Under the pieces are notes generated by a model that did not search any database, was not told where the DNA came from, and saw only the letters and a program-made list of their open reading frames with translations. A DNA stretch of 33,070 nucleotides from a virus (Duplodnaviria > Heunggongvirae > Uroviricota > Caudoviricetes): positions 1 through 33,070 of IMG/VR virus record IMGVR_UViG_2698536341_000022, one strand, 5' to 3'. Positions 1,449 to 13,373 of this stretch are shown here, in pieces. The position numbers and the translations under genes are program-made. Numbering within the stretch: the stretch's first letter is position 1; each line of letters opens with the position of its first letter.

Positions 1449-2018
1449 CTATTTAACATACTTGACTGTTAAACTTATAATTTTACCAATTATTTCAATG
1501 TCTTCTATCTTGCATTCGAAGGCTCTGTTTCCACCCTCGACGAAGATTCTTCCACCGGGTAAACGAGTAATGTCACGGATAGTTATTTCGCCATCAATAC
1601 TTATTACCCATTTACCATCACGTATATCATCAAATTCTTTATCACAAATAAATTCAGAATTGTTATCTGTGATGACAAAAGGTTTTTTAAACGTAGAGGG
1701 TAGAAATCCCTTATCAAAAATATAAAAACCGTCTTTCTGCAATGCTCCATCAGACAATAAATATTTTTCTACTTCTATAGTATTTGTATTTGCTGATGCT
1801 TGCTTTGAACCATGCCCTGTTGTTAGCCAATTAAGCGAGGTGCCCGTTTCAAGGGCGCACTGGATTACCCAATCTGCTGGAAAAATATCACGCATATAGC
1901 GCGTTGCCATGGTGCTCTTAGAAACACCTAAATGATCACATAGAGCCTGACGGGTACCGAACCCATATGCTTCAACTAAACGTTCTATGGCTTTCTTACC
2001 GCCGCTATTGAAATCCAC
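1449..2018 (-). CDS. cI: Immunity repressor CI (phage 186 type)
   Basis: Track ORF 1449..2105(-); segment RLVEAYGF...CALETGTSLNWLTTG resembles my recollection of the 186 CI N-terminal domain; position between int and apl. Start uncertain: GTG 2018 has a GGAGGA RBS; the maximal ORF starts at GTG 2105 with no RBS. Confidence 0.75.
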   Translation of the reverse strand: MDFNSGGKKAIERLVEAYGFGTRQALCDHLGVSKSTMATRYMRDIFPADWVIQCALETGTSLNWLTTGHGSKQASANTNTIEVEKYLLSDGALQKDGFYIFDKGFLPSTFKKPFVITDNNSEFICDKEFDDIRDGKWVISIDGEITIRDITRLPGGRIFVEGGNRAFECKIEDIEIIGKIISLTVKYVK

Positions 2019-2163
2019 AAGTCCTCCAAAGAAATCCAAAATTCGTTGACAGATTCCAAAAGCGATCTTAAAGTTGAACCAGAAGTGTTCTTTTGGAGCC
2101 TTCACTACTAATCACGACAAACAACGGCTCGCCACAAGCCATATCTAGAAGGAATGTTGCCTT

Positions 2164-4005: not shown

Positions 4006-4232
4006 TGGCTGATGCAATGGATCTCGTACAGCAGCGCGTTGAAGAAGAACGCCAGCGCCATATCCGTGCAGCCCGTGCCAAATCACCGGGCGTGTCACGC
4101 GTACTTTGCATTGAATGTGAAGCGCCAATTCCGCCAGCACGACGCCGCGCCATTCCGGGAGTGCAGCTTTGCATTACCTGTCAGGAAATCGCAGAACTGA
4201 AAGGCAAACATTACAACGGAGGTGCTGTATGA
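4005..4232 (+). CDS. TraR/DksA-family C4 zinc-finger protein (75 aa)
   Basis: CxxC...CxxC arrangement (CIECEAPIPPARRRAIPGVQLCITCQ) typical of phage TraR/DksA-like zinc fingers; translationally coupled on both sides. Confidence 0.75.
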   Translation: MADAMDLVQQRVEEERQRHIRAARAKSPGVSRVLCIECEAPIPPARRRAIPGVQLCITCQEIAELKGKHYNGGAV

Positions 4233-5086
4233 GCACCATCCTGAAATGGGCGGGAAATAAAACCGCCATTATGCCAGAACTGAAAAAATACCTTCCTGCT
4301 GGCCCGCGACTGGTTGAACCTTTCGCGGGTTCCTGTGCTGTGATGATGGAAACGGATTATCCCAGCTATCTGGTTGCGGATATTAATCCTGATTTAATCA
4401 ACCTCTATAAAAAGGTTTCCGCTGATTGTGAATCGTTTATATCTCGCGCCAGAGTTTTATTTGAGATCGCAAACAGGGAGGTGGCTTATTACAACATAAG
4501 GCAGGAGTTTAACTGCTCAACTGAAATTACTGATTTCATGAAAGCGGTATATTTCCTGTATCTTAATCGTCACGGTTACCGTGGTTTATGTCGCTATAAC
4601 AAGAGCGGGCATTTCAACATCCCCTACGGTAATTATAAAAATCCGTATTTCCCTGAAAAAGAACTTCGCACATTTGCAGAAAAAGCCCAGCGAGCAACGT
4701 TTATCTGCGCCAGCTTTGATGAAACGCTGGCGATGTTGAAGGCGGGAGATGTGGTGTATTGCGATCCGCCGTATGACGGTACGTTTTCCGGCTATCACAC
4801 TGATGGTTTCACTGAAGATGACCAGTATCACCTGGCATCCGTTCTTGAACATCGGTCATCAGAAGGACATCCAGTCATTGTTTCTAACAGTGACACATCC
4901 CTGATCCGTTCGCTGTATCGCAATTTTACTCACCACTATATCAAGGTAAAACGCAGCATCGGTGTGGCAGCTGGCGAGGGTAAATCAGCAACAGAAATCA
5001 TTGCTGTTTCCGGGCCGCGCTGCTGGATGGGATTTGATTATTCGCGTGGCGTGGATAGTTCTGCCGTGTACGGAGTACGTGCATGA
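4229..5086 (+). CDS. dam: DNA adenine methyltransferase, Dam-like (285 aa)
   Basis: ATG 4229 with GGAGG RBS; motifs LKWAGNK, EPFAGS and the catalytic DPPY tetrad are hallmarks of N6-adenine (GATC-type) methylases; ATGA overlaps with flanking genes. Confidence 0.85.
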
Positions 5087-7497
5087 GTCATGCCGATATG
5101 AACAACTGCTGCGGCTTTAACGAGGCTGCTGCAGCATTCTCATGGAACAGCCCGAAAAAGGCCATTAACCCTTATCTGGACCCGGCGGAAGTTGCGCCGG
5201 TTTCTACGCTTTCAAACCTGATCACTCTGTACGCTGCCGATAACGAGCAGGAACAGTTGCGCCGCGAGGCACTGAGTGATCAGGTCTGGGAGCGTTATTT
5301 CTTTAATGAATCACGTGATCCTGTCCAGCGCGAAATGGAGCAGGATAAGCTCATTAGCCGGGCAAAGCTGGCGCATGAGCAGCAGCGTTTTAATTCAGAC
5401 ATGGTCATTCTGGCGGACGTCAACGCCCAGCCTTCCCATATCAGCAAGCCGCTGATGCAACGTATTGAATACTTCAGCAGCCTGGGCAAGCCAAAGGCTT
5501 ATTCCCGCTATTTACGTGAGACGATTAAGCCATGTCTGGAACGACTGGAGCATGTACGCGACAGTCAGCTATCTGCATCTTTTCGCTTTATGGCAAGCCA
5601 TGAAGGGCTGGACGGCCTGCTGATCCTGCCTGAAATGAGTCAGGATCAGGTGAAACGCCTGTCCACCCTGGTAGCTGCGCATATGAGTATGTGCCTTGAT
5701 GCAGCTTGTGGTGATTTGTATGCCACCGATGACGTTAAGCCAGAAGAAATCCGCAAGACATGGGAAAAGGTGGCAGCGGAAACCCTGCGTCTGGATGTCA
5801 TCCCACCTGCGTTTGAGCAACTCCGTCGGAAAAGAAACCGCCGTAAACCCGTGCCCTATGAACTCATTCCGGGTTCGTTGGCGCGTATGTTGTGTGCCGA
5901 CTGGTGGTATCGGAAATTATGGAAGATGCGTTGTGAATGGCGGGAAGAGCAGTTGCGTGCTGTCTGCCTGGTCAGCAAAAAAGCATCCCCCTATGTCAGC
6001 TATGAAGCCGTGATGCATAAACGTGAGCAGCGCCGTAAGTCGCTGGAGTTTTTCCGTTCTCATGAACTGGTGAACGAAGACGGCGACACGCTGGATATGG
6101 AAGATGTGGTAAACGCCAGCAGCAGCAACCCGGCGCATCGCCGCAATGAGATGATGGCCTGTGTTAAAGGTCTGGAGCTTATCGCGGAAATGCGCAGTGA
6201 CTGCGCCGTTTTCTACACTATCACCTGTCCGTCGCGTTTCCATTCCACGCTCAATAACGGCAGACCCAACCCGACCTGGACAAACTCGACGGTAAGACAA
6301 AGCAGCGACTATCTGGTCGGCATGTTTGCTGCATTTCGTAAGGCGATGCACAAAGCCGGATTGCGCTGGTATGGCGTGCGGGTGGCTGAGCCGCATCATG
6401 ACGGTACAGTTCACTGGCACCTGTTGTGTTTTATGCGCAAAAAAGACCGCCGCGCCATCACTGCATTACTGCGTAAGTTTGCCATCCGTGAAGACCGCGA
6501 GGAGCTGGGCAATAACACTGGGCCGCGCTTTAAGTCTGAGTTGATTAACCCGCGCAAAGGAACGCCGACAAGCTACATCGCGAAATATATCAGTAAGAAC
6601 ATTGACGGGCGTGGTCTGGCTGGCGAGATCAGCAAGGAAACGGGTAAATCTCTGCGTGATAACGCTGAATACGTTAATGTCTGGGCGTCTCTGCATCGTG
6701 TTCAGCAATTCCGCTTCTTTGGCATTCCGGGGCGTCAGGCTTACCGTGAACTGCGATTGCTGGCTGGTCAGGCGGCAAGGCAACAGGGTGACAAAAAAGC
6801 AGGTGCTCCGGTACTGGATAACCCGCGCCTTGATGCCATTCTGGCTGCTGCTGATGCTGGCTGTTTTGCCACCTACATTATGAAGCAGGGCGGCGTGTTG
6901 GTTCCCCGCAAATATCACTTGATCAGAACCGCTTATGAAATCAACGAAGAGCCGACAGCCTATGGCGATCACGGCATTCGTATTTATGGCATCTGGTCAC
7001 CCATTGCAGAGGGCAAGATCTGCACTCATGCAGTGAAGTGGAAAATGGTTCGTAAGGCCGTTGACGTTCAGGAGGCGGCAGCCGACCAGGGCGCTTGCGC
7101 CCCTTGGACTCGTGGCAATAACTGTCCCCTTGCTGAAAATTTGTACCAACAAGGGAAAGACAAATCAGCTGATGGAGATACCAGAACTGATATCACCCGT
7201 ATGGATGACAAGGAGTTGCACGATTACCTGCACAGTATGAGCAAAAAAGAGCGCCGGGAACTGGCAGCAAGGTTACGCCTGGTGAAACCGAAACGGCGTA
7301 AAGACTACAAACAGCGAATTACAGATCATCAGCGACAGCAGCTCGTGTATGAACTGAAGTCCAGGGGATTTGATGGCAGCGAGAAAGAGGTCGATTTACT
7401 CCTTCGCGGCGGCAGTATTCCGTCAGGAGCAGGCCTGCGTATCTTCTATCGGAACCAGCGTTTGCAGGAAGATGATAAGTGGCGGAACCTGTATTAA
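5083..7497 (+). CDS. A: Replication initiation protein A (rolling-circle nicking endonuclease, P2 gpA / 186 RepA family, 804 aa)
   Basis: Size, position after the early operon and the HxH-containing segment (VHWHLLCF) fit P2 A-type replication proteins. Confidence 0.85.
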
Positions 7498-7589
7498 TTA
7501 CGCGGGTTAACAATTCGTGCTCTTAATAATACCAGGCATTTCTGGCTGATGAACGTAAAAAAACGTTTTACATCAGTAAGATTATTATA

Positions 7590-7609
7590 TACTGTAAATA
7601 TAAACAGTG
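7590..7609 (+). promoter_or_regulatory. LexA operator (SOS box) upstream of the tum/dinI-like operon
   Basis: tACTGTaaatataaACAGtg is a perfect CTGT-N8-ACAG match with an AT-rich spacer, 41 bp upstream of ATG 7650; an adjacent half-site ATACAGTA lies at 7617-7624. Confidence 0.8.
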
Positions 7610-7649
7610 GTTATGTATACAGTATCGCTTTGGTGTCATAGGAGGAAAG

Positions 7650-7838
7650 ATGCAGGACTATTTTTTGGAGTCTTTGAAGCTCCAGCGCATTGATTTTTTT
7701 CTTAAGCTTGTAGCGGCTAGTGAGTGTAGTGATGAAGAGAAGGGGCTGGCTCTGCAGTGGGTTTCTGAATTGACTGATGAACTCATGGCAAAAATCAGAA
7801 CCCACGAATACAACCGCTCAATGGATGTCATCAGTTGA
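7650..7838 (+). CDS. Small SOS-operon protein (62 aa), possible Tum-like antirepressor N-terminal module
   Basis: GGAGG RBS, ATG start, directly downstream of the LexA box and upstream of the DinI-like gene; function inferred from position only. Confidence 0.5.
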   Translation: MQDYFLESLKLQRIDFFLKLVAASECSDEEKGLALQWVSELTDELMAKIRTHEYNRSMDVIS

Positions 7839-7848
7839 GGTGACTTTT

Positions 7849-8082
7849 ATGCGCATTGAAATAATGATCGATAAAGAGCAGAAGATTAGCCAGTCTACCC
7901 TGGACGCCCTTGAATCCGAGCTTTACCGCAATCTGCGCCCCCTGTATCCCAAAACGGTAATTCGTATCCGCAAAGGTAGCTCTAACGGTGTGGAACTGAC
8001 CGGACTGCAACTGGATGAAGAAAGAAAACAAGTGATGAAAATTATGCAGAAAGTGTGGGAAGACGACAGCTGGCTGCATTAA
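7849..8082 (+). CDS. DinI-family protein (77 aa), likely the C-terminal-like half of a split 186 Tum-type antirepressor
   Basis: MRIEIMIDKEQ...LDALESEL...KQVMKIMQKVWEDDSW aligns along its length with my recollection of E. coli DinI (MRIEVTIAK...IDALAGEL...KQRISEILQETWESADDW); GAGG RBS before ATG 7849. Confidence 0.8.
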   Translation: MRIEIMIDKEQKISQSTLDALESELYRNLRPLYPKTVIRIRKGSSNGVELTGLQLDEERKQVMKIMQKVWEDDSWLH

Positions 8083-8193
8083 GAAACGTTGCCTCCAGGA
8101 GGATTCATTCTGATGGGGGCTAGTTTGGGCAACGAGTGAAACGAGGCGTAAGGTGGGCGGGCATTTTGATAAGTGATCGTCCGCTTTGTGCTA

Positions 8194-8213
8194 GAAGCGG
8201 TCGTTACCGCTTC
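8194..8213. terminator. Stem-loop between convergent dinI-like and herA genes (possible bidirectional terminator)
   Basis: Perfect 8-bp inverted repeat GAAGCGGT / ACCGCTTC with a 4-nt loop; flanking T-run is weak. Confidence 0.4.
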
Positions 8214-8226
8214 AGCACTTTGTTAA

Positions 8227-10086
8227 TTAGTGAGGGCTGGTTATTACGTAGTCGCTCTGGTCATCCTCTCCCAGCCTCTCAGGTATTAAATCGTTGAAGG
8301 AAATAGTATTACTCTTAGGTTTTTCTTCAATTGGAAGTTCAGCTACCCTTAATTTGAGCGGCATGGGGCAGACGATACCACTAAAAATACAGGTTCCTGT
8401 AGATAGCGTTGGAATCGACTCTTCAGTCAGTCGATCTATATATGATACTGATTTTTCAATTGCGTACAGATCATTCTGATTAATAAGGCGATGAATAAAA
8501 TAATTGTGTGCTTGGGATATGATTGTCGACGATATATCATTAGGGCGTTGACTGGAAATTGTGATAAAAACTCCAAATTTTCTCCCCTCCTTTATGATTT
8601 CCTCAAAAGTTTCCAGACGATAATCTCTCCAACTTTCCGTTTCCCGAAAAGAAGTATTAGACAAAATATTGTGGGCTTCATCTATAATGATGTGCAGTGT
8701 AGATTTCTCTGTAGACATTTTCTTCATATTGTAAGCCCACTTGGCTATCAAAAGAGGAAGCGTTTTTTTCATGGTTATATTAACCATATTTAGATTCACA
8801 ACCGTGAAATTATGTTCACCCCAAAAGTCAGACTGTCCGGAAGTATCAAATATTTTGGCTATATCTTTACGGTTAGCACTCATTCTATTTATAACTGGTG
8901 AAATATGTTCAGGGTTAGACTTGTTAGATAAATATTCCTGTATTAACTGTAAGTACATAAAGTCCAACAGTTCTTCAATCATATCAGTTTTAAATAAAAA
9001 ATTGCTTGCAAGACTGAATAGATAGGAGCGCTCAGTATCAGCTTCTGTATTGAAAATACTACCACCCCTCAATTTCCATTTATATGCAGTTGAATGATAC
9101 TCAAGATCAGATATAAGTTCTGGGTCATCTTTGAAAATTGGGCTAAGAAACTGATTTATAGTATCGCATTTGGGTTTGTCGCTACTAAAGAGATTTTGTC
9201 TGACTTTTTTCTTCAGGATATTGCGCATAAACTCAAGAGGATTATCAGCAGTCATCACTTTCTTGCGAAACTCAAGAACTCTCTTCAGGAAAGGTTTCTG
9301 TGTTTTGTCTGTTGCATCGGTTAGAACTGAGAGCATATCATGCTCAAGTAGAACCTCTCTGGGTAGAGGAAGTTTGTCACCATTTGCATGGTGCGTGTTG
9401 AGATTATAAACCGTCTTCTCGTCAGTAATACAGCGTGGGGCAGTATATTCTCCATTAAAGTCGAATAGAATAAATTTGCATCTTTCACTAAAGTGGTTGC
9501 CGAGAATATGTTTAACTTGGGCAATACCTGCTTTGTATAGCGCGGCTAGGGTATTTGACTTTCCGCTGCCTGTATTACCGAAAATGGCAATGTGGGAATT
9601 AATAAGACCATTGATTGGTAGTGCAATTTCAATATCTTCAAGATCTGTACGAGTAAACCTCATTACAGTTTCGTCTGCATTAGCTATCTGATGAACCGTT
9701 TGTATCATCTCTTCAGTTACCACGAAGACTTCATTGCCGATGAGAGGTAGTTCACGCGAACCACCAATGAAGCAACCAGTACGATCAATGTAACCCGTAA
9801 GAGTAGAGGTCAGGTATCGCCGATATCGCCAGGCATCACTGCCGCTCCCAGCGAGATGTTTTTCCTCAATGATTCGTTCCGCTTCAACCTTGCCGATCAG
9901 GCTCATGAAACCTTTTTTGATCTCAATGAAGCTACCCACTGATACATTTCTTAGAACTTTTCCCTGATAAAACAAGTCACTGAGATTTTTGTTTTTATCG
10001 ACCAAAATTGTCACAGCGCGTCCAGAAACCTCACAGACTTCGCCTATACGGAGCACCGCTTCCTCTTCAGTAAAATGCCTGCTCAT
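8227..10086 (-). CDS. herA: HerA-like P-loop ATPase/helicase of the SIR2-HerA anti-phage system (619 aa)
   Basis: Walker A GNTGSGKSN and Walker B IIIDEAHN in a DUF87/HerA-FtsK-like arrangement; ATG 10086 overlaps the SIR2 stop (ATGA) with a GGGAGG RBS. The track ORF extends to GTG 10107. Confidence 0.85.
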   Translation of the reverse strand: MSRHFTEEEAVLRIGEVCEVSGRAVTILVDKNKNLSDLFYQGKVLRNVSVGSFIEIKKGFMSLIGKVEAERIIEEKHLAGSGSDAWRYRRYLTSTLTGYIDRTGCFIGGSRELPLIGNEVFVVTEEMIQTVHQIANADETVMRFTRTDLEDIEIALPINGLINSHIAIFGNTGSGKSNTLAALYKAGIAQVKHILGNHFSERCKFILFDFNGEYTAPRCITDEKTVYNLNTHHANGDKLPLPREVLLEHDMLSVLTDATDKTQKPFLKRVLEFRKKVMTADNPLEFMRNILKKKVRQNLFSSDKPKCDTINQFLSPIFKDDPELISDLEYHSTAYKWKLRGGSIFNTEADTERSYLFSLASNFLFKTDMIEELLDFMYLQLIQEYLSNKSNPEHISPVINRMSANRKDIAKIFDTSGQSDFWGEHNFTVVNLNMVNITMKKTLPLLIAKWAYNMKKMSTEKSTLHIIIDEAHNILSNTSFRETESWRDYRLETFEEIIKEGRKFGVFITISSQRPNDISSTIISQAHNYFIHRLINQNDLYAIEKSVSYIDRLTEESIPTLSTGTCIFSGIVCPMPLKLRVAELPIEEKPKSNTISFNDLIPERLGEDDQSDYVITSPH

Positions 10087-11126
10087 CTCGAGCCTCCCAG
10101 ATAGCACGTGATAATGTTATTCATTACCGGAAAATCAACATTTCTTCCCGGCCGATAAATAATCTCTACGTTTGAGTAATCCCGAAATTTCTCCATAAAG
10201 CCGTTAACACTGGCCTCATCGAAAGCAAAGATCAGTAGCTTCAGGGTGGCGTTGCGCAGGGCTTTTTTAGTTATCGTTTCAATGTGCTCATCAGCAAACG
10301 AGAACCCAAAGACAATTAGTAAAGTTGCTTCTTTATCAAGCTCGTTGGAATAGGTTCTCAGTAAATCATAATAAACGTTCTGTAGTAGAGTCTCTTTAAA
10401 CTTCTCCTTACGTGGAAGAATAAGTGCATGAGCAAGTACCCATCCTTTCATTTCGGCTAGGGTGGGAAAGTCAAGCGGCTTAATATCTGCAATACGATAA
10501 ATGATTTTCCCTTTAGAATGCTGCCAAGAGAGCGAACCATGAAGTTTTATAAGGTTAACAGTAGGAAGCTCAACTTTATAATTATACAGATTTCCGGTTG
10601 CACTTACAGAATGATTAAAGCTACCCGCATCAAATTCCGCATCTCCCAAAATACTTGCTCTTCTATTGAATCCATCATTAAAAAGAATATTGTTATTACG
10701 TGTGGCAGCTTCTTCGATGAATAAATCATAATTAGTTGTAAAAACGTTAATACGCCTCGGAAGTAGGCCAGTTCGGCGGCGGGTCAGTATCTTTTCCAGT
10801 GAAGACATAAATGCATCATAATTTGCACGGGTACATTCCAAATCGGTGATCACCTGAGGTGCGAAGGGGGTGCCGTAGCCGCGCTTCAACATGCATTCAT
10901 GAGGTAGCCAAACATCTGACAAAAAGTCAGCTGCCATCCTTAAGTATTCATCTTCCTGTTCATCATTAATAAGCTGCTGAAGATCCGTTTCGATTGTCCC
11001 CAGTACTTTAATCGCTGGGAGGGATGCACCTGATCCGATGAGAAAGTTAATGTTAGCTGACTGAAATATCCGCTCTAAGTAGTCTCGGTCACTATCGTTA
11101 CCGTAGTATGCGCGCTTGACTGCCAT
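10083..11126 (-). CDS. SIR2-like NAD-consuming domain protein of the SIR2-HerA anti-phage system (347 aa)
   Basis: Motifs FLIGSGAS, TTNYD and KLHGS are hallmarks of defence-type SIR2 domains; ATG 11126 with AAGGA RBS (track ORF starts at TTG 11141); directly upstream of and overlapping herA. Confidence 0.85.
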   Translation of the reverse strand: MAVKRAYYGNDSDRDYLERIFQSANINFLIGSGASLPAIKVLGTIETDLQQLINDEQEDEYLRMAADFLSDVWLPHECMLKRGYGTPFAPQVITDLECTRANYDAFMSSLEKILTRRRTGLLPRRINVFTTNYDLFIEEAATRNNNILFNDGFNRRASILGDAEFDAGSFNHSVSATGNLYNYKVELPTVNLIKLHGSLSWQHSKGKIIYRIADIKPLDFPTLAEMKGWVLAHALILPRKEKFKETLLQNVYYDLLRTYSNELDKEATLLIVFGFSFADEHIETITKKALRNATLKLLIFAFDEASVNGFMEKFRDYSNVEIIYRPGRNVDFPVMNNIITCYLGGSR

Positions 11127-11550
11127 CTTATCCTTCCACAAAACATTGGATTAGTCTGTAATTTATTTAATCTTAACGCCGAGCTCAATACTTTAACATC
11201 ACTTCTTCTGGCGATTGCTATGAGCCCTTCTTGATAAAAAGTTCGATCGGGAAACTGATCCTTTATGCCACAAGTTTTCTAGCTATCCTCAAAAAATTGG
11301 TGTTAAAACTGTGCCAACAAAGTTGCAAGGTTCGCTTCTCGCTCACAGCGAACTTTCATCTTTGTAAACCCGTATGATTCGCTTTTCAGCAGTCATTCAG
11401 ATACGGATTTACGCTTCCCTTGGCAGCGCATGACTATGACGCATGAGATCGCATGATCGTTTGAGGATCGTTTTTGCTGAAGTCAGCCAGAACTGGCGTG
11501 CTTTTGCTTATGTCATGCAGGTGCATGAAAACCACTACATAAAGCGGGCA

Positions 11551-11721: not shown

Positions 11722-12636
11722 ATGCCATACCAATTGGTAGAGCTTAGCCCCGTAGCTAACGATCTTGAACAGTTAGGAACCAAAGAGAAGTTTTGGTTCT
11801 ATTTCTCCGATGACACTGTAAATTTGCAGTTGTTTAAGTACTCTAGGCCAGGTACTGGCGAGCATTGGTCTGAAAAGTGTGCTGCTGAGTTATGTCATTT
11901 GCTTAACATTCCACATGCTAGCTATGATTTGGCGCGATACAATGGTCGATTCGGTGTGGTGACTCAGAATATCATTCCATCTGGTTTCCGGATGGTAATG
12001 GGAAATGAAGTGCTTCACAGTTCGACATTCGATTATCCTGGGTCTTTACAAGCCGGGGAAAAGCCGGTAAGGGTCAGAGAACACACTGTCACAAGGGTAT
12101 TGGGTTGTTTAGATAGGGAATCTATCAAGCCTCCTCCGAGTGTATATGATCTAACCGGGCTAAATGCAGCAGATGTATTTTGTGGATATTTGATGCTCGA
12201 TGCACTTGTGAGTAATCAAGATCGCCATCATGAAAATTGGGCGATCATGCTTAACAATGAAACTGGTGAGCAGTTTTTGTGTCCAACATACGATCATGCC
12301 GCTAGTTTAGGAAGGGAGATGTTAGATGATGAGCGTAACGAACGGCTTAATACTAAAGATAAAAATCGACAAATCCCATGTTTTGTAAGAAAAGCTCGCT
12401 CTGAGCTATTCAAAGCAAAAACTGATAAAAAGCCCTTGCTGACCGTTGAAGCATTTCAACATGCAGTTGAAGGGAGAGTTGCCGCTCGCGACCATTGGTT
12501 AGGTAAGTTGAGCGTTTTAACAGAAGATTCCATTACAGATGTGTTTAACCAAGTGCCTTCATCGTGTATATCCGACAGTGCACGTAGATTTGCAACGTTA
12601 ATGGTAATGGAAAATCGCAGAAGGTTACTAGAATGA
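11722..12636 (+). CDS. HipA/HipT-like Ser/Thr kinase-fold protein (304 aa); first gene of a candidate two-gene defence/toxin module
   Basis: P-loop-like LGTKEKFWF near the N-terminus, catalytic-loop-like SNQDRHHENW and a downstream PTYDH motif, in the order seen in HipA_C kinases; lacks the long HipA N-domain (HipT-like length). Stop overlaps the next start (ATGA). Confidence 0.6.
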   Translation: MPYQLVELSPVANDLEQLGTKEKFWFYFSDDTVNLQLFKYSRPGTGEHWSEKCAAELCHLLNIPHASYDLARYNGRFGVVTQNIIPSGFRMVMGNEVLHSSTFDYPGSLQAGEKPVRVREHTVTRVLGCLDRESIKPPPSVYDLTGLNAADVFCGYLMLDALVSNQDRHHENWAIMLNNETGEQFLCPTYDHAASLGREMLDDERNERLNTKDKNRQIPCFVRKARSELFKAKTDKKPLLTVEAFQHAVEGRVAARDHWLGKLSVLTEDSITDVFNQVPSSCISDSARRFATLMVMENRRRLLE

Positions 12637-13373
12637 CTAATACAAACTCCGTTTACGTCGCATGGCAGGCACCAGATACCAGAGACTGGCATGTTGTTGG
12701 TAACTTGCAAGAGCGCAAATCGGGGTATGTTTTCAGGTATACCAAAGGTGCTCTCAAATCTACTAAATTTACAAAGTTTAGCGGCATGAGTGATGTTCGT
12801 GAAACTTATGTTTCGGAAGAATTGTTTCCTCTTTTTAAAAATCGCCTTTTATCACCGAGACGTCCAGAGTATCCGAGTTTCATTAAATGGCTTGGATTTG
12901 AAGAAGATAAGGTAAATCCTATCGATATTCTTGCTCGCTCGGGAGGCTTACGAAGCACTGATCAGCTGCAGATTTTCAAAAAAATTGATGTTGATTCTGA
13001 TGGTAACTTTGAGCATTTTTTCTTCTTACATGGACTTGGTTACTTAAATAGCTTAGCTAATGCTCGTGTATCTGAATTGAAACCGGGGCAAATTTTGCGT
13101 CTTTGCTTGGATCTTCAAAATGAATACGATGGGGATGCTGTTGTCGTTCGTGCAGATAAACCAGCTGAAATCGTTGGTTACTGCCCTAGGTATTTAAGTA
13201 ATGATATCAAGAAGATGTTATTGGATGATCCAAAATCAATCACTTTAACGGTCGAAAAGATTAGCGATGATGCTCCTCATAACTATCGGTTATTATGTAA
13301 ATTATCAGGAGTACTAAGCCAAGCCTGTCAATCGACGCTGATTCCTCAGGATGAGTTTGAACCTATTGAGTAA
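12633..13373 (+). CDS. Protein with HipA-N/HipS-like N-terminal domain and C-terminal HIRAN-like domain (246 aa)
   Basis: N-terminal LFPLFKNRLLSPRRPEY resembles the HipA N-domain motif (F-x-N-L-L-P-E-G-x-x-R); C-terminal LKPGQILRLCLDLQNEYDGDAVVVRADKPAEIVGYCPRYLSNDIKKML matches the HIRAN signature (NPYD-x-NAI-x-V ... G-Y-x-P). Translationally coupled to the kinase gene. Confidence 0.55.
   Translation: MTNTNSVYVAWQAPDTRDWHVVGNLQERKSGYVFRYTKGALKSTKFTKFSGMSDVRETYVSEELFPLFKNRLLSPRRPEYPSFIKWLGFEEDKVNPIDILARSGGLRSTDQLQIFKKIDVDSDGNFEHFFFLHGLGYLNSLANARVSELKPGQILRLCLDLQNEYDGDAVVVRADKPAEIVGYCPRYLSNDIKKMLLDDPKSITLTVEKISDDAPHNYRLLCKLSGVLSQACQSTLIPQDEFEPIE

Follow-up and report, generated by a model that had tools for sequence, protein, structure and literature searches.

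The DNA analysed here (the window, 33,070 nucleotides) carries a LexA-type box followed by two small open reading frames, and the question raised by this locus is whether it is a prophage SOS-induction device of the type known from phage 186, with the two halves of the 186 Tum protein encoded by separate genes. An earlier note on the sequence had proposed this, together with inducibility of the prophage by UV or SOS. We conclude with considerable confidence that the locus is an SOS-induction operon of a Fels-2/186-type (Peduoviridae) E. coli prophage. What the present analysis shows is the layout of the locus, its homologies, a conserved operator and a CI target in the same window; LexA control and antirepression are taken from published work on the close relatives 186, PSP3 and Fels-2.

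The window is a P2-like (Peduoviridae) prophage with a 186-type regulatory region. On the minus strand there are an integrase gene (1-1209) and the gene for a 186-type CI immunity repressor (1449..2105; Pfam Phage_CI_repr, E 3.3e-31, and Phage_CI_C, E 4.7e-29), the true start codon of which is uncertain. The Peptidase_S24 match of CI lay under the cut-off (16.1 vs 23.3 bits), and by Pfam the cognate 186-type CI is without a functional autocleavage domain. These genes are accompanied by a small apl/cox-like ORF (2164-2367) and by CII (2423-2941; Pfam Phage_CP76). Pfam found no P2-type C repressor in the window; its place is taken by CI and CII of the 186 type, and CI is the presumed target of the antirepressor. 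The replication gene A (gpA) occupies 5083-7497 and the module of interest, at 7567-8082, lies directly downstream of it, an order kept in Fels-2, 186, PSP3 and eight further loci. Convergent SIR2-HerA and PDC-M03 defence genes lie downstream of the module in the window. PADLOC gave no defence-family match for ORF1 or ORF2, and an Rfam scan of the window matched nothing.

The LexA box was read correctly in the earlier note as a perfect CTGT-N8-ACAG with an AT-rich spacer: CTGTAAATATAAACAG at 7592..7607 (distal box 1, no strand assigned) is the sole exact match to this pattern in the window, and its spacer, AAATATAA, is A/T throughout. The 20-mer at 7590-7609 agrees with the consensus TACTGTATATATATACAGTA at 17 of 20 positions. 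Box 1 lies 42 nt upstream of the ATG of ORF1. A proximal box 2, GTGGTTATGTATACAG (7607..7622, no strand assigned), follows it with a 1-bp overlap, so that the last G of box 1 is common to both boxes. Box 2 agrees with the consensus at 15 of 20 positions, having a weak left arm (GTGG) and a good right arm (ACAG).

The boxes accompany a candidate tum-type (p95-like) promoter on the plus strand, with a −35 hexamer TTTACA at 7567..7572 (5/6 to TTGACA) and a −10 hexamer TACTGT at 7590..7595, the latter assigned by analogy with 186 p95 and overlapping box 1. The distance between the two hexamers is 17 bp, the same as in the annotated 186 p95 promoter. The promoter would thus read TTTACA, 17 nt, TACTGT, by comparison with 186; an alternative −10 candidate is TATACT at 7588-7593. 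A generic sigma-70 scan of 7400-8400 reported no promoter, because the −10 hexamer is embedded in the LexA box and has only a 3/6 match.

The two ORFs behind the operator, also on the plus strand, are those described in the earlier note. ORF1 (7650..7838, 62 aa) is a tumA-like gene by profile homology, predicted to encode an antirepressor that corresponds to the N-terminal part of Tum in 186, and is preceded by a Shine-Dalgarno sequence AGGAGG (7640..7645) that was read from the sequence and is conserved in a seven-locus alignment. ORF2 (7849..8082, 77 aa) is a tumB/dinI-like gene, by its Pfam DinI and phrog_189 matches, with its own Shine-Dalgarno sequence GAGGTGA (7837..7843), likewise read from the sequence, which overlaps the ORF1 stop codon. 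The ORFs had been described as separated by a stop and a 10-bp gap. Both are present (TGA at 7836-7838, gap at 7839-7848), but this is not the whole of the separation, as the two ORFs also lie in different reading frames (+1). A hairpin at 7827-7844 was considered as an attenuator or as a means of translational coupling at this junction and was set aside, being not significant (z −1.26) and not conserved in sequence.

The presence of a LexA box in the window is by itself not significant, because about 0.45 matches to CTGT-N8-ACAG are expected by chance: at least one match was found in 38 of 100 shuffles, compared with the single match observed in 33 kb. The case for the box therefore rests on its position and conservation. 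We collected related loci from Fels-2, 186, PSP3, ESSI2_ev015, Cronobacter ESSI-2, Yersinia YenM_324, Erwinia ENT90 and three metagenomic or genomic contigs. The 11 related loci belong to different Peduoviridae genera, and in 10 of them the start of the homologous TumA-like gene has a box 17-43 bp ahead of it. The boxes in those 10 loci agree with 17-19 of the 20 consensus positions, and the remaining intergenic DNA is unalignable. Each locus has just one CTGT-N8-ACAG except PSP3, which has two. In the eleventh locus, ENT90, the single box appears to lie inside an over-called 5′ end of the annotated ORF, judging from the translated N-terminus LYICTV.

A fine alignment was made of seven Fels-2-type loci with ORF1 identities of 84-100%. 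Mean pairwise identity among these loci is 83% over the A-tract and −35 hexamer (7560-7572), falls to 54% in the promoter spacer (15-17 nt) and rises again to 87% over TATACTGT and box 1 and to 87.5% over box 2. Just downstream of box 2 it drops to 41%, before reaching 81% in the Shine-Dalgarno region. The TTTACA −35 hexamer and TATACTGT are invariant across the seven loci.

The identity of ORF2 is clear. Pfam DinI (PF06183) matches it at E 6.6e-23 with 81.3 bits against a cut-off of 24.2, covering profile positions 1-63 of 63, and its PHROG family is phrog_189, 'RecA filament binding protein DinI' (E 1.5e-29). ORF2 is 78% identical to PSP3 TumB, is 41% identical to residues 71-145 of 186 Tum (E 3e-24) and matches E. 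coli DinI (PDB 1GHH) over the full length, residues 1-75 (E 2.7e-6). The statement that the LexA-controlled Tum of 186 has a DinI-like C-terminal half is borne out both by the annotation of the 186 record and by this alignment. By homology, the ORF2 protein is expected to bind RecA filaments and modulate their co-protease activity; it would presumably tune filament activity.

For ORF1, pairwise comparison was uninformative. BLASTP gave no alignment of ORF1 to 186 Tum or to PSP3 TumA and none between PSP3 TumA and 186 Tum, so profile methods were needed. A search for ORF1 relatives among 1.84 billion representatives returned just 66 clusters, nearly all of 50-100 aa, and a profile was built from 31 diverse relatives. 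This profile aligned collinearly with 186 Tum, residues 3-44 to 3-44 (hhalign probability 94.6%, E 7e-8), and matched PSP3 TumA alone only weakly (probability 7%). The pattern common to the ORF1 family and Tum is E-x5-R-[IV]-x4-R-L-x-A-x3-C-x3-D-[KR]-x-[LI]-A-x5-E-[LI]. The PHROG families form a link between the three proteins: ORF1 belongs to phrog_698 (E 3.6e-38) and also cross-hits the families of the Tum N-terminal half, PSP3 TumA to phrog_1993, and the N-terminal half of 186 Tum hits phrog_1993, 8554 and 698, all three of which are labelled 'unknown function'. These results support homology of ORF1 to the N-terminal half of 186 Tum. The alignment to 186 Tum and E. coli DinI that had been suggested as a check thus came out positive for ORF2 with both proteins and for ORF1 with Tum by profile, not by BLASTP.

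AlphaFold2 models ORF1 as a hairpin of two helices (2-23 and 28-61; pLDDT 86.9), and the conserved cysteine sits at the turn. Foldseek comparison of this model with viral structures gave insignificant helical-hairpin matches only (all E >0.4), a PDB sequence search with the ORF1 profile matched nothing, and ORF1 has no Pfam family. ORF1 is 98.4% identical to Fels-2 STM2728, from which it differs by one residue. In essentially all records it is named 'hypothetical' or 'levan regulatory protein', and Pfam gave nothing for the 'levan' name. The 62-aa gene can reasonably be named a TumA-type antirepressor, and the result mainly serves annotation.

The split form of the module is the common one. 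Of 5426 complete E. coli genomes, 1125 contain it, most of them at 95-99% identity (100% in four strains, with E189 and E148 as examples), whereas the fused 186-type tum is present in just 42. Among the matches listed from the 66 clusters, none had the size and match location that a fusion of an ORF1-type N-terminal half to DinI would show. A TumA-like gene alone, with no dinI, occurs in ESSI2_ev015, ESSI-2, YenM_324, ENT90 and three contigs that carry 34-40% identical ORF1 homologues; these stand-alone genes lie between gpA and convergent ogr/portal genes. Because TumA-like genes stand alone in distant relatives, the N-terminal module seems self-sufficient and DinI looks like an add-on to a LexA-controlled antirepressor gene; the fusion in 186 looks to be a derived, rare form. 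Among relatives, the gap between ORF1 and ORF2 varies from 3 to 13 bp and the relative frame may be 0, +1 or +2, each ORF2 keeping its own purine-rich Shine-Dalgarno sequence and ATG. This variation in gap length and frame speaks for two independent cistrons rather than a frameshift fusion.

We compared the antirepressor with its presumed target across related phages. Where phages carry the same ORF1, or nearly the same, their CI proteins are just 39-57% identical overall to the window CI. Most of the differences fall in the linker and the C-terminal domain (26-41% identity), while the helix-turn-helix N-terminal domain retains 70-83%. For Cartapus and Kp phi14.1, CI identity is 70-75% in the N-terminal domain and 26-30% in the C-terminal domain. 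Over 11 phages, the similarity of TumA correlates with that of the CI N-terminal domain (Mantel rho 0.71, p 0.0008) and not with that of the C-terminal domain (rho 0.15, p 0.17). The antirepressor probably targets the CI N-terminal domain, to which the covariation is an indirect pointer. The correlation could also come from co-inheritance of a block running from the N-terminal domain to tum, and not from physical interaction or co-evolution, because the end of cI that codes for the N-terminal domain faces the early operon. The notion of 'one antirepressor, many immunities' was tempered by the finding that the CI partners of one and the same TumA vary above all in their C-terminal domains.

The operator is double, comprising boxes 1 and 2 (7592-7622): two 16-bp boxes share one base pair, their half-sites are recognisable and both are conserved in the seven loci. 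A single box is present in 186, PSP3 and the stand-alone TumA loci. A 51-nt query over the Fels-2 version of the site matched approximately 1100 plasmids, mostly mobilizable; in the two plasmids that we examined, the match lay just upstream of a colicin-like pore-former gene (Col plasmids). The 34-nt double site aligns base for base with its plasmid counterpart and is nearly identical to it (CTGTATATAAAACCAGTGGTTATATATACAGTAT vs CTGTAAATATAAACAGTGGTTATGTATACAGTAT). Colicin operators bind two LexA dimers, preventing untimely expression of a lethal function, and the resulting repression is very tight, with expression in <1% of cells (PMC2994835). By analogy, the double box of the Fels-2 type would give tighter repression and a later or threshold-dependent induction. 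No paper among those searched mentions the double operator or its tighter repression for Fels-2.

The following sequence of events is proposed. In an undamaged cell, LexA would sit on the double operator (7592-7622) over the −10 region, occluding the promoter and keeping transcription off. DNA damage would activate RecA and trigger LexA self-cleavage, upon which the promoter would fire and two separately translated proteins would be made. The 62-aa TumA-like helical hairpin would bind the 186-type CI, probably at its N-terminal DNA-binding domain, and CI would leave its operators. The lytic promoter would then open, leading to prophage excision and replication, while the 77-aa DinI homologue would bind RecA filaments and adjust how strong or how long-lasting the SOS signal is. 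CI binding or prophage induction by the antirepressor is known for 186 Tum and has been reported for PSP3 TumA and the Fels-2 tum homologue, and we predict that this prophage is likewise inducible by DNA damage in a RecA/LexA-dependent manner.

A different outcome would be an SOS-regulated module that is an inefficient inducer, serving the host mainly as a DinI/RecA modulator. Derepression by TumA would then be weak or threshold-dependent, and in standard tests the lysogen would seem not to respond to UV or mitomycin C. The prophages of LT2 are reportedly not strongly UV-inducible, a finding that is said to come from Bunny et al. 2002, and strong inducibility should for that reason not be assumed. 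The double colicin-type operator points the same way, given the tight repression and <1% of expressing cells seen for colicin genes (PMC2994835), as does the fact that DinI homologues are common SOS-regulated prophage cargo (PMC3121763). However, two sources, both citing Bunny 2002, attribute the lethality of a lexA-null mutation in Salmonella LT2 to induction of Fels-2 (PMC8072944, PMC12626290), which indicates that full derepression is enough for induction. Many relatives, moreover, have TumA-like genes behind LexA boxes without dinI, so that the conserved core is the antirepressor. We regard the inefficient outcome as improbable, though it deserves more weight than either of the two readings considered below.

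It might instead be that ORF1 is not an antirepressor at all but a remnant of a broken fused tum, or a protein with some other role ('levan regulatory protein'), leaving only DinI functional. Such a reading could draw on the missing Pfam family, the 'unknown function' labels of the PHROG families, the negative pairwise comparison with Tum and the 'levan regulatory' name in some records. It is difficult to reconcile with the conservation of ORF1, which behaves like coding sequence over seven diverged loci (mean pairwise DNA identity 86%, vs 41-58% in the neighbouring non-coding DNA), with its strong Shine-Dalgarno sequence, or with a stand-alone family found across genera, always after gpA and behind a LexA box. 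The fused form is the rare one (42 vs 1125 E. coli genomes), the profile match to the Tum N-terminal half is collinear, and nothing supports the 'levan' name; we consider this reading very unlikely. Less credible still, to the point of being nearly dismissible, is that a fused 186-like Tum is produced from the two ORFs by a programmed +1 frameshift or read-through at their junction, helped by the hairpin at 7827-7844. The ORF2 frame is indeed open for 75 nt upstream of its ATG, overlapping the 3′ end of ORF1, and the hairpin spans the stop codon and the Shine-Dalgarno sequence. This upstream open stretch is, however, not conserved, gap length and frame differ even among close relatives, the hairpin is not significant (z −1.26) and not conserved in sequence, there is no evident slippery motif, and ORF2 has its own Shine-Dalgarno sequence and ATG in every relative. 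The module is thus best read as an operon of two separately translated genes, an antirepressor of the TumA type and a DinI homologue, under SOS control.

If this reading is right, it predicts that this common class of P2-like prophages of E. coli, Klebsiella and Salmonella responds to DNA-damaging antibiotics, and the predicted response extends to the defence islands that they carry, here SIR2-HerA and PDC-M03. We offer a further suggestion more tentatively, as one that may well prove wrong. Fels-2-type prophages, present in ∼20% of complete E. coli genomes, would use the colicin-style double operator to hold the antirepressor off until late, severe SOS, with the single-box 186 and PSP3 firing earlier. 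Their one TumA allele, which hardly varies, would have the conserved N-terminal domain of CI as its target, and it could therefore cross-induce co-resident relatives with widely different CI C-terminal domains.

How, then, does the module compare with known systems? P2 itself is the prototype of a non-inducible phage (PMC5322425). The view that this is the same device as in 186 with the halves as separate genes is upheld by the profile alignment (E 7e-8), the PHROG links, the tumA/tumB pair of PSP3 and the report by Lemire et al. 2011 (PMC3121763) that tum is split in two in Fels-2 and PSP3. The module has thus already been described and is not a new kind of system. Neither this precedent nor the doubling of the operator featured in the earlier note. 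What the analysis adds is a more apt name for a small gene that is widely mis-annotated, the resemblance of the double operator to that of colicin genes and a hint at the CI N-terminal domain as target; the operator and the covariation of TumA with this domain are small refinements.

Fels-2 is the closest counterpart. Its pair, STM2728 and STM2726.1 (DinI family), shares 97.5% DNA identity with the window over the promoter and both genes, as well as the position after gpA, the double LexA operator, the 10-bp gap and the +1 frame offset. The differences lie outside the module: Fels-2 has a same-strand orf97-like gene downstream, whereas the window has the convergent SIR2-HerA and PDC-M03, and the CI partner is another one, no CI in the phage collection being >57% identical to the window CI. 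PSP3 also keeps the two genes separate, downstream of gene A and of a LexA box. Its record describes tumA as 'similar to 5' end 186 tum; UV induction of prophage' and tumB as 'similar to dinI and 3' end of 186 tum', and the upstream gene is the antirepressor according to a personal communication that Lemire et al. 2011 (PMC3121763) cite. In contrast to the window, PSP3 has a TumA of the 186-like subfamily (phrog_1993) with marginal similarity to ORF1, a single-box operator, a 3-bp gap with both genes in the same frame, and a CI with a duplicated N-terminal domain.

In 186, the LexA-repressed promoter p95 likewise follows gene A, with its −10 hexamer TACTGT forming the left arm of the LexA site, and the record describes tum as 'repressed by LexA; inhibits CI DNA binding'. 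The N-terminal half of Tum is homologous to ORF1 and the C-terminal half is DinI-like; a free DinI-like product is also made from an internal GTG with its own Shine-Dalgarno sequence, the record stating that shorter DinI-like products from internal starts 'modulate SOS induction'. The 186 system differs in that a single 146-aa protein contains both halves, that there is just one LexA box and that orf97 comes next in the operon. Beyond the P2-like phages, the LexA-controlled dinI-gfoA and gftA operons of the Gifsy type pair a DinI homologue with a small antirepressor that acts against a non-cleavable repressor (PMC3121763). They belong to lambdoid prophages, however, have dinI as the first gene, and use unrelated antirepressor and repressor families. 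Finally, the double SOS box of colicin operons has the same two 16-bp LexA boxes with a 1-bp overlap as the operator described here; the colicin version drives a toxin/lysis operon, whereas the predicted operator of the window would drive a prophage antirepressor.

Homologues of ORF1 (7650–7838, + strand), which encodes the predicted TumA-like antirepressor, go by two names: a number of Klebsiella phage and UniRef entries call them 'levan regulatory (domain) protein', and other entries 'hypothetical'. A Pfam search of window ORF1 returned no family, and the present analysis gave no grounds for the term 'levan'. Several gene callers run the 5′ end of ORF1 homologues upstream through the LexA box, and the resulting over-extended N-termini read, for example, ...YTVYKH... 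or ...LYKYTVNE.... In Escherichia phage 500465-1, the ORF1 homologue (positions 599–889 of its locus, L023) carries a 1-nt deletion followed ∼20 nt later by a 1-nt insertion; this compensating pair of frameshifts keeps the overall frame, with protein identity down to 90%.

Where the phage has no dinI partner, the stand-alone TumA-like protein carries an extra Gly-rich C-terminal tail that ends in (L/F)Q (e.g. ...GGISGGGSRFQ). Genes for tailed proteins of this kind lie at 4049–4270 in L004, 4001–4207 in L006, 1201–1413 in L015, 1201–1422 in L016 and 1201–1398 in L017, all loci of phages lacking dinI. The tail is missing from window ORF1 and from the other dinI-linked TumA versions.

The best identity of the window CI repressor (1449–2105, − strand), the presumed target of ORF1, to any CI in a phage collection of 50,697 records was ≤57%. 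Judged from this comparison, its C-terminal domain and linker therefore seem to represent a rare variant. The first ATG in the CI reading frame does not occur before residue 65, and the putative start is thus GTG, TTG or another non-ATG codon. The 286-aa PSP3 CI (L003, 3219–4079, − strand) has its helix–turn–helix (HTH) N-terminal domain in two tandem copies, and in Klebsiella phage Kp4872-2 (L011) a further N-terminal-domain-like fragment lies upstream of cI; the comparison with the phage collection accordingly gave matches at two places in these records.

On the 3′ side, the tum module adjoins a SIR2–HerA pair (8227–11141, − strand; PADLOC: HerA 6.7e-267, SIR2 6.3e-211) that is convergent with the tum operon. 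RNA folding of the spacer between ORF2 and HerA gave an unusually stable + strand fold (8140–8215; −60.7 kcal/mol, z −4.1, 161 nt), which includes a GC hairpin of 8 bp and a long stem with G·U pairs. Because the fold is without a U-run, it is not a textbook terminator. An Rfam scan of the window gave zero matches. If the fold fails to terminate transcription, SOS-induced transcripts that start at the tum promoter would read on through HerA and SIR2 in antisense orientation.

Next to the SIR2–HerA pair is the candidate system PDC-M03A/B (11722–13373, + strand), which comprises HipA_C-like and HIRAN proteins. This defence cargo as a whole (SIR2–HerA and PDC-M03A/B), in its position after the tum module and in the way the content of the site varies among relatives, fits the variable defence-gene hotspot of P2. 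Homology between the window and Fels-2 ends at ∼8080, and at the corresponding site Fels-2 carries an orf97-like gene and phage 500465-1 a TIR-domain protein, whereas the window carries SIR2–HerA and PDC-M03A/B.
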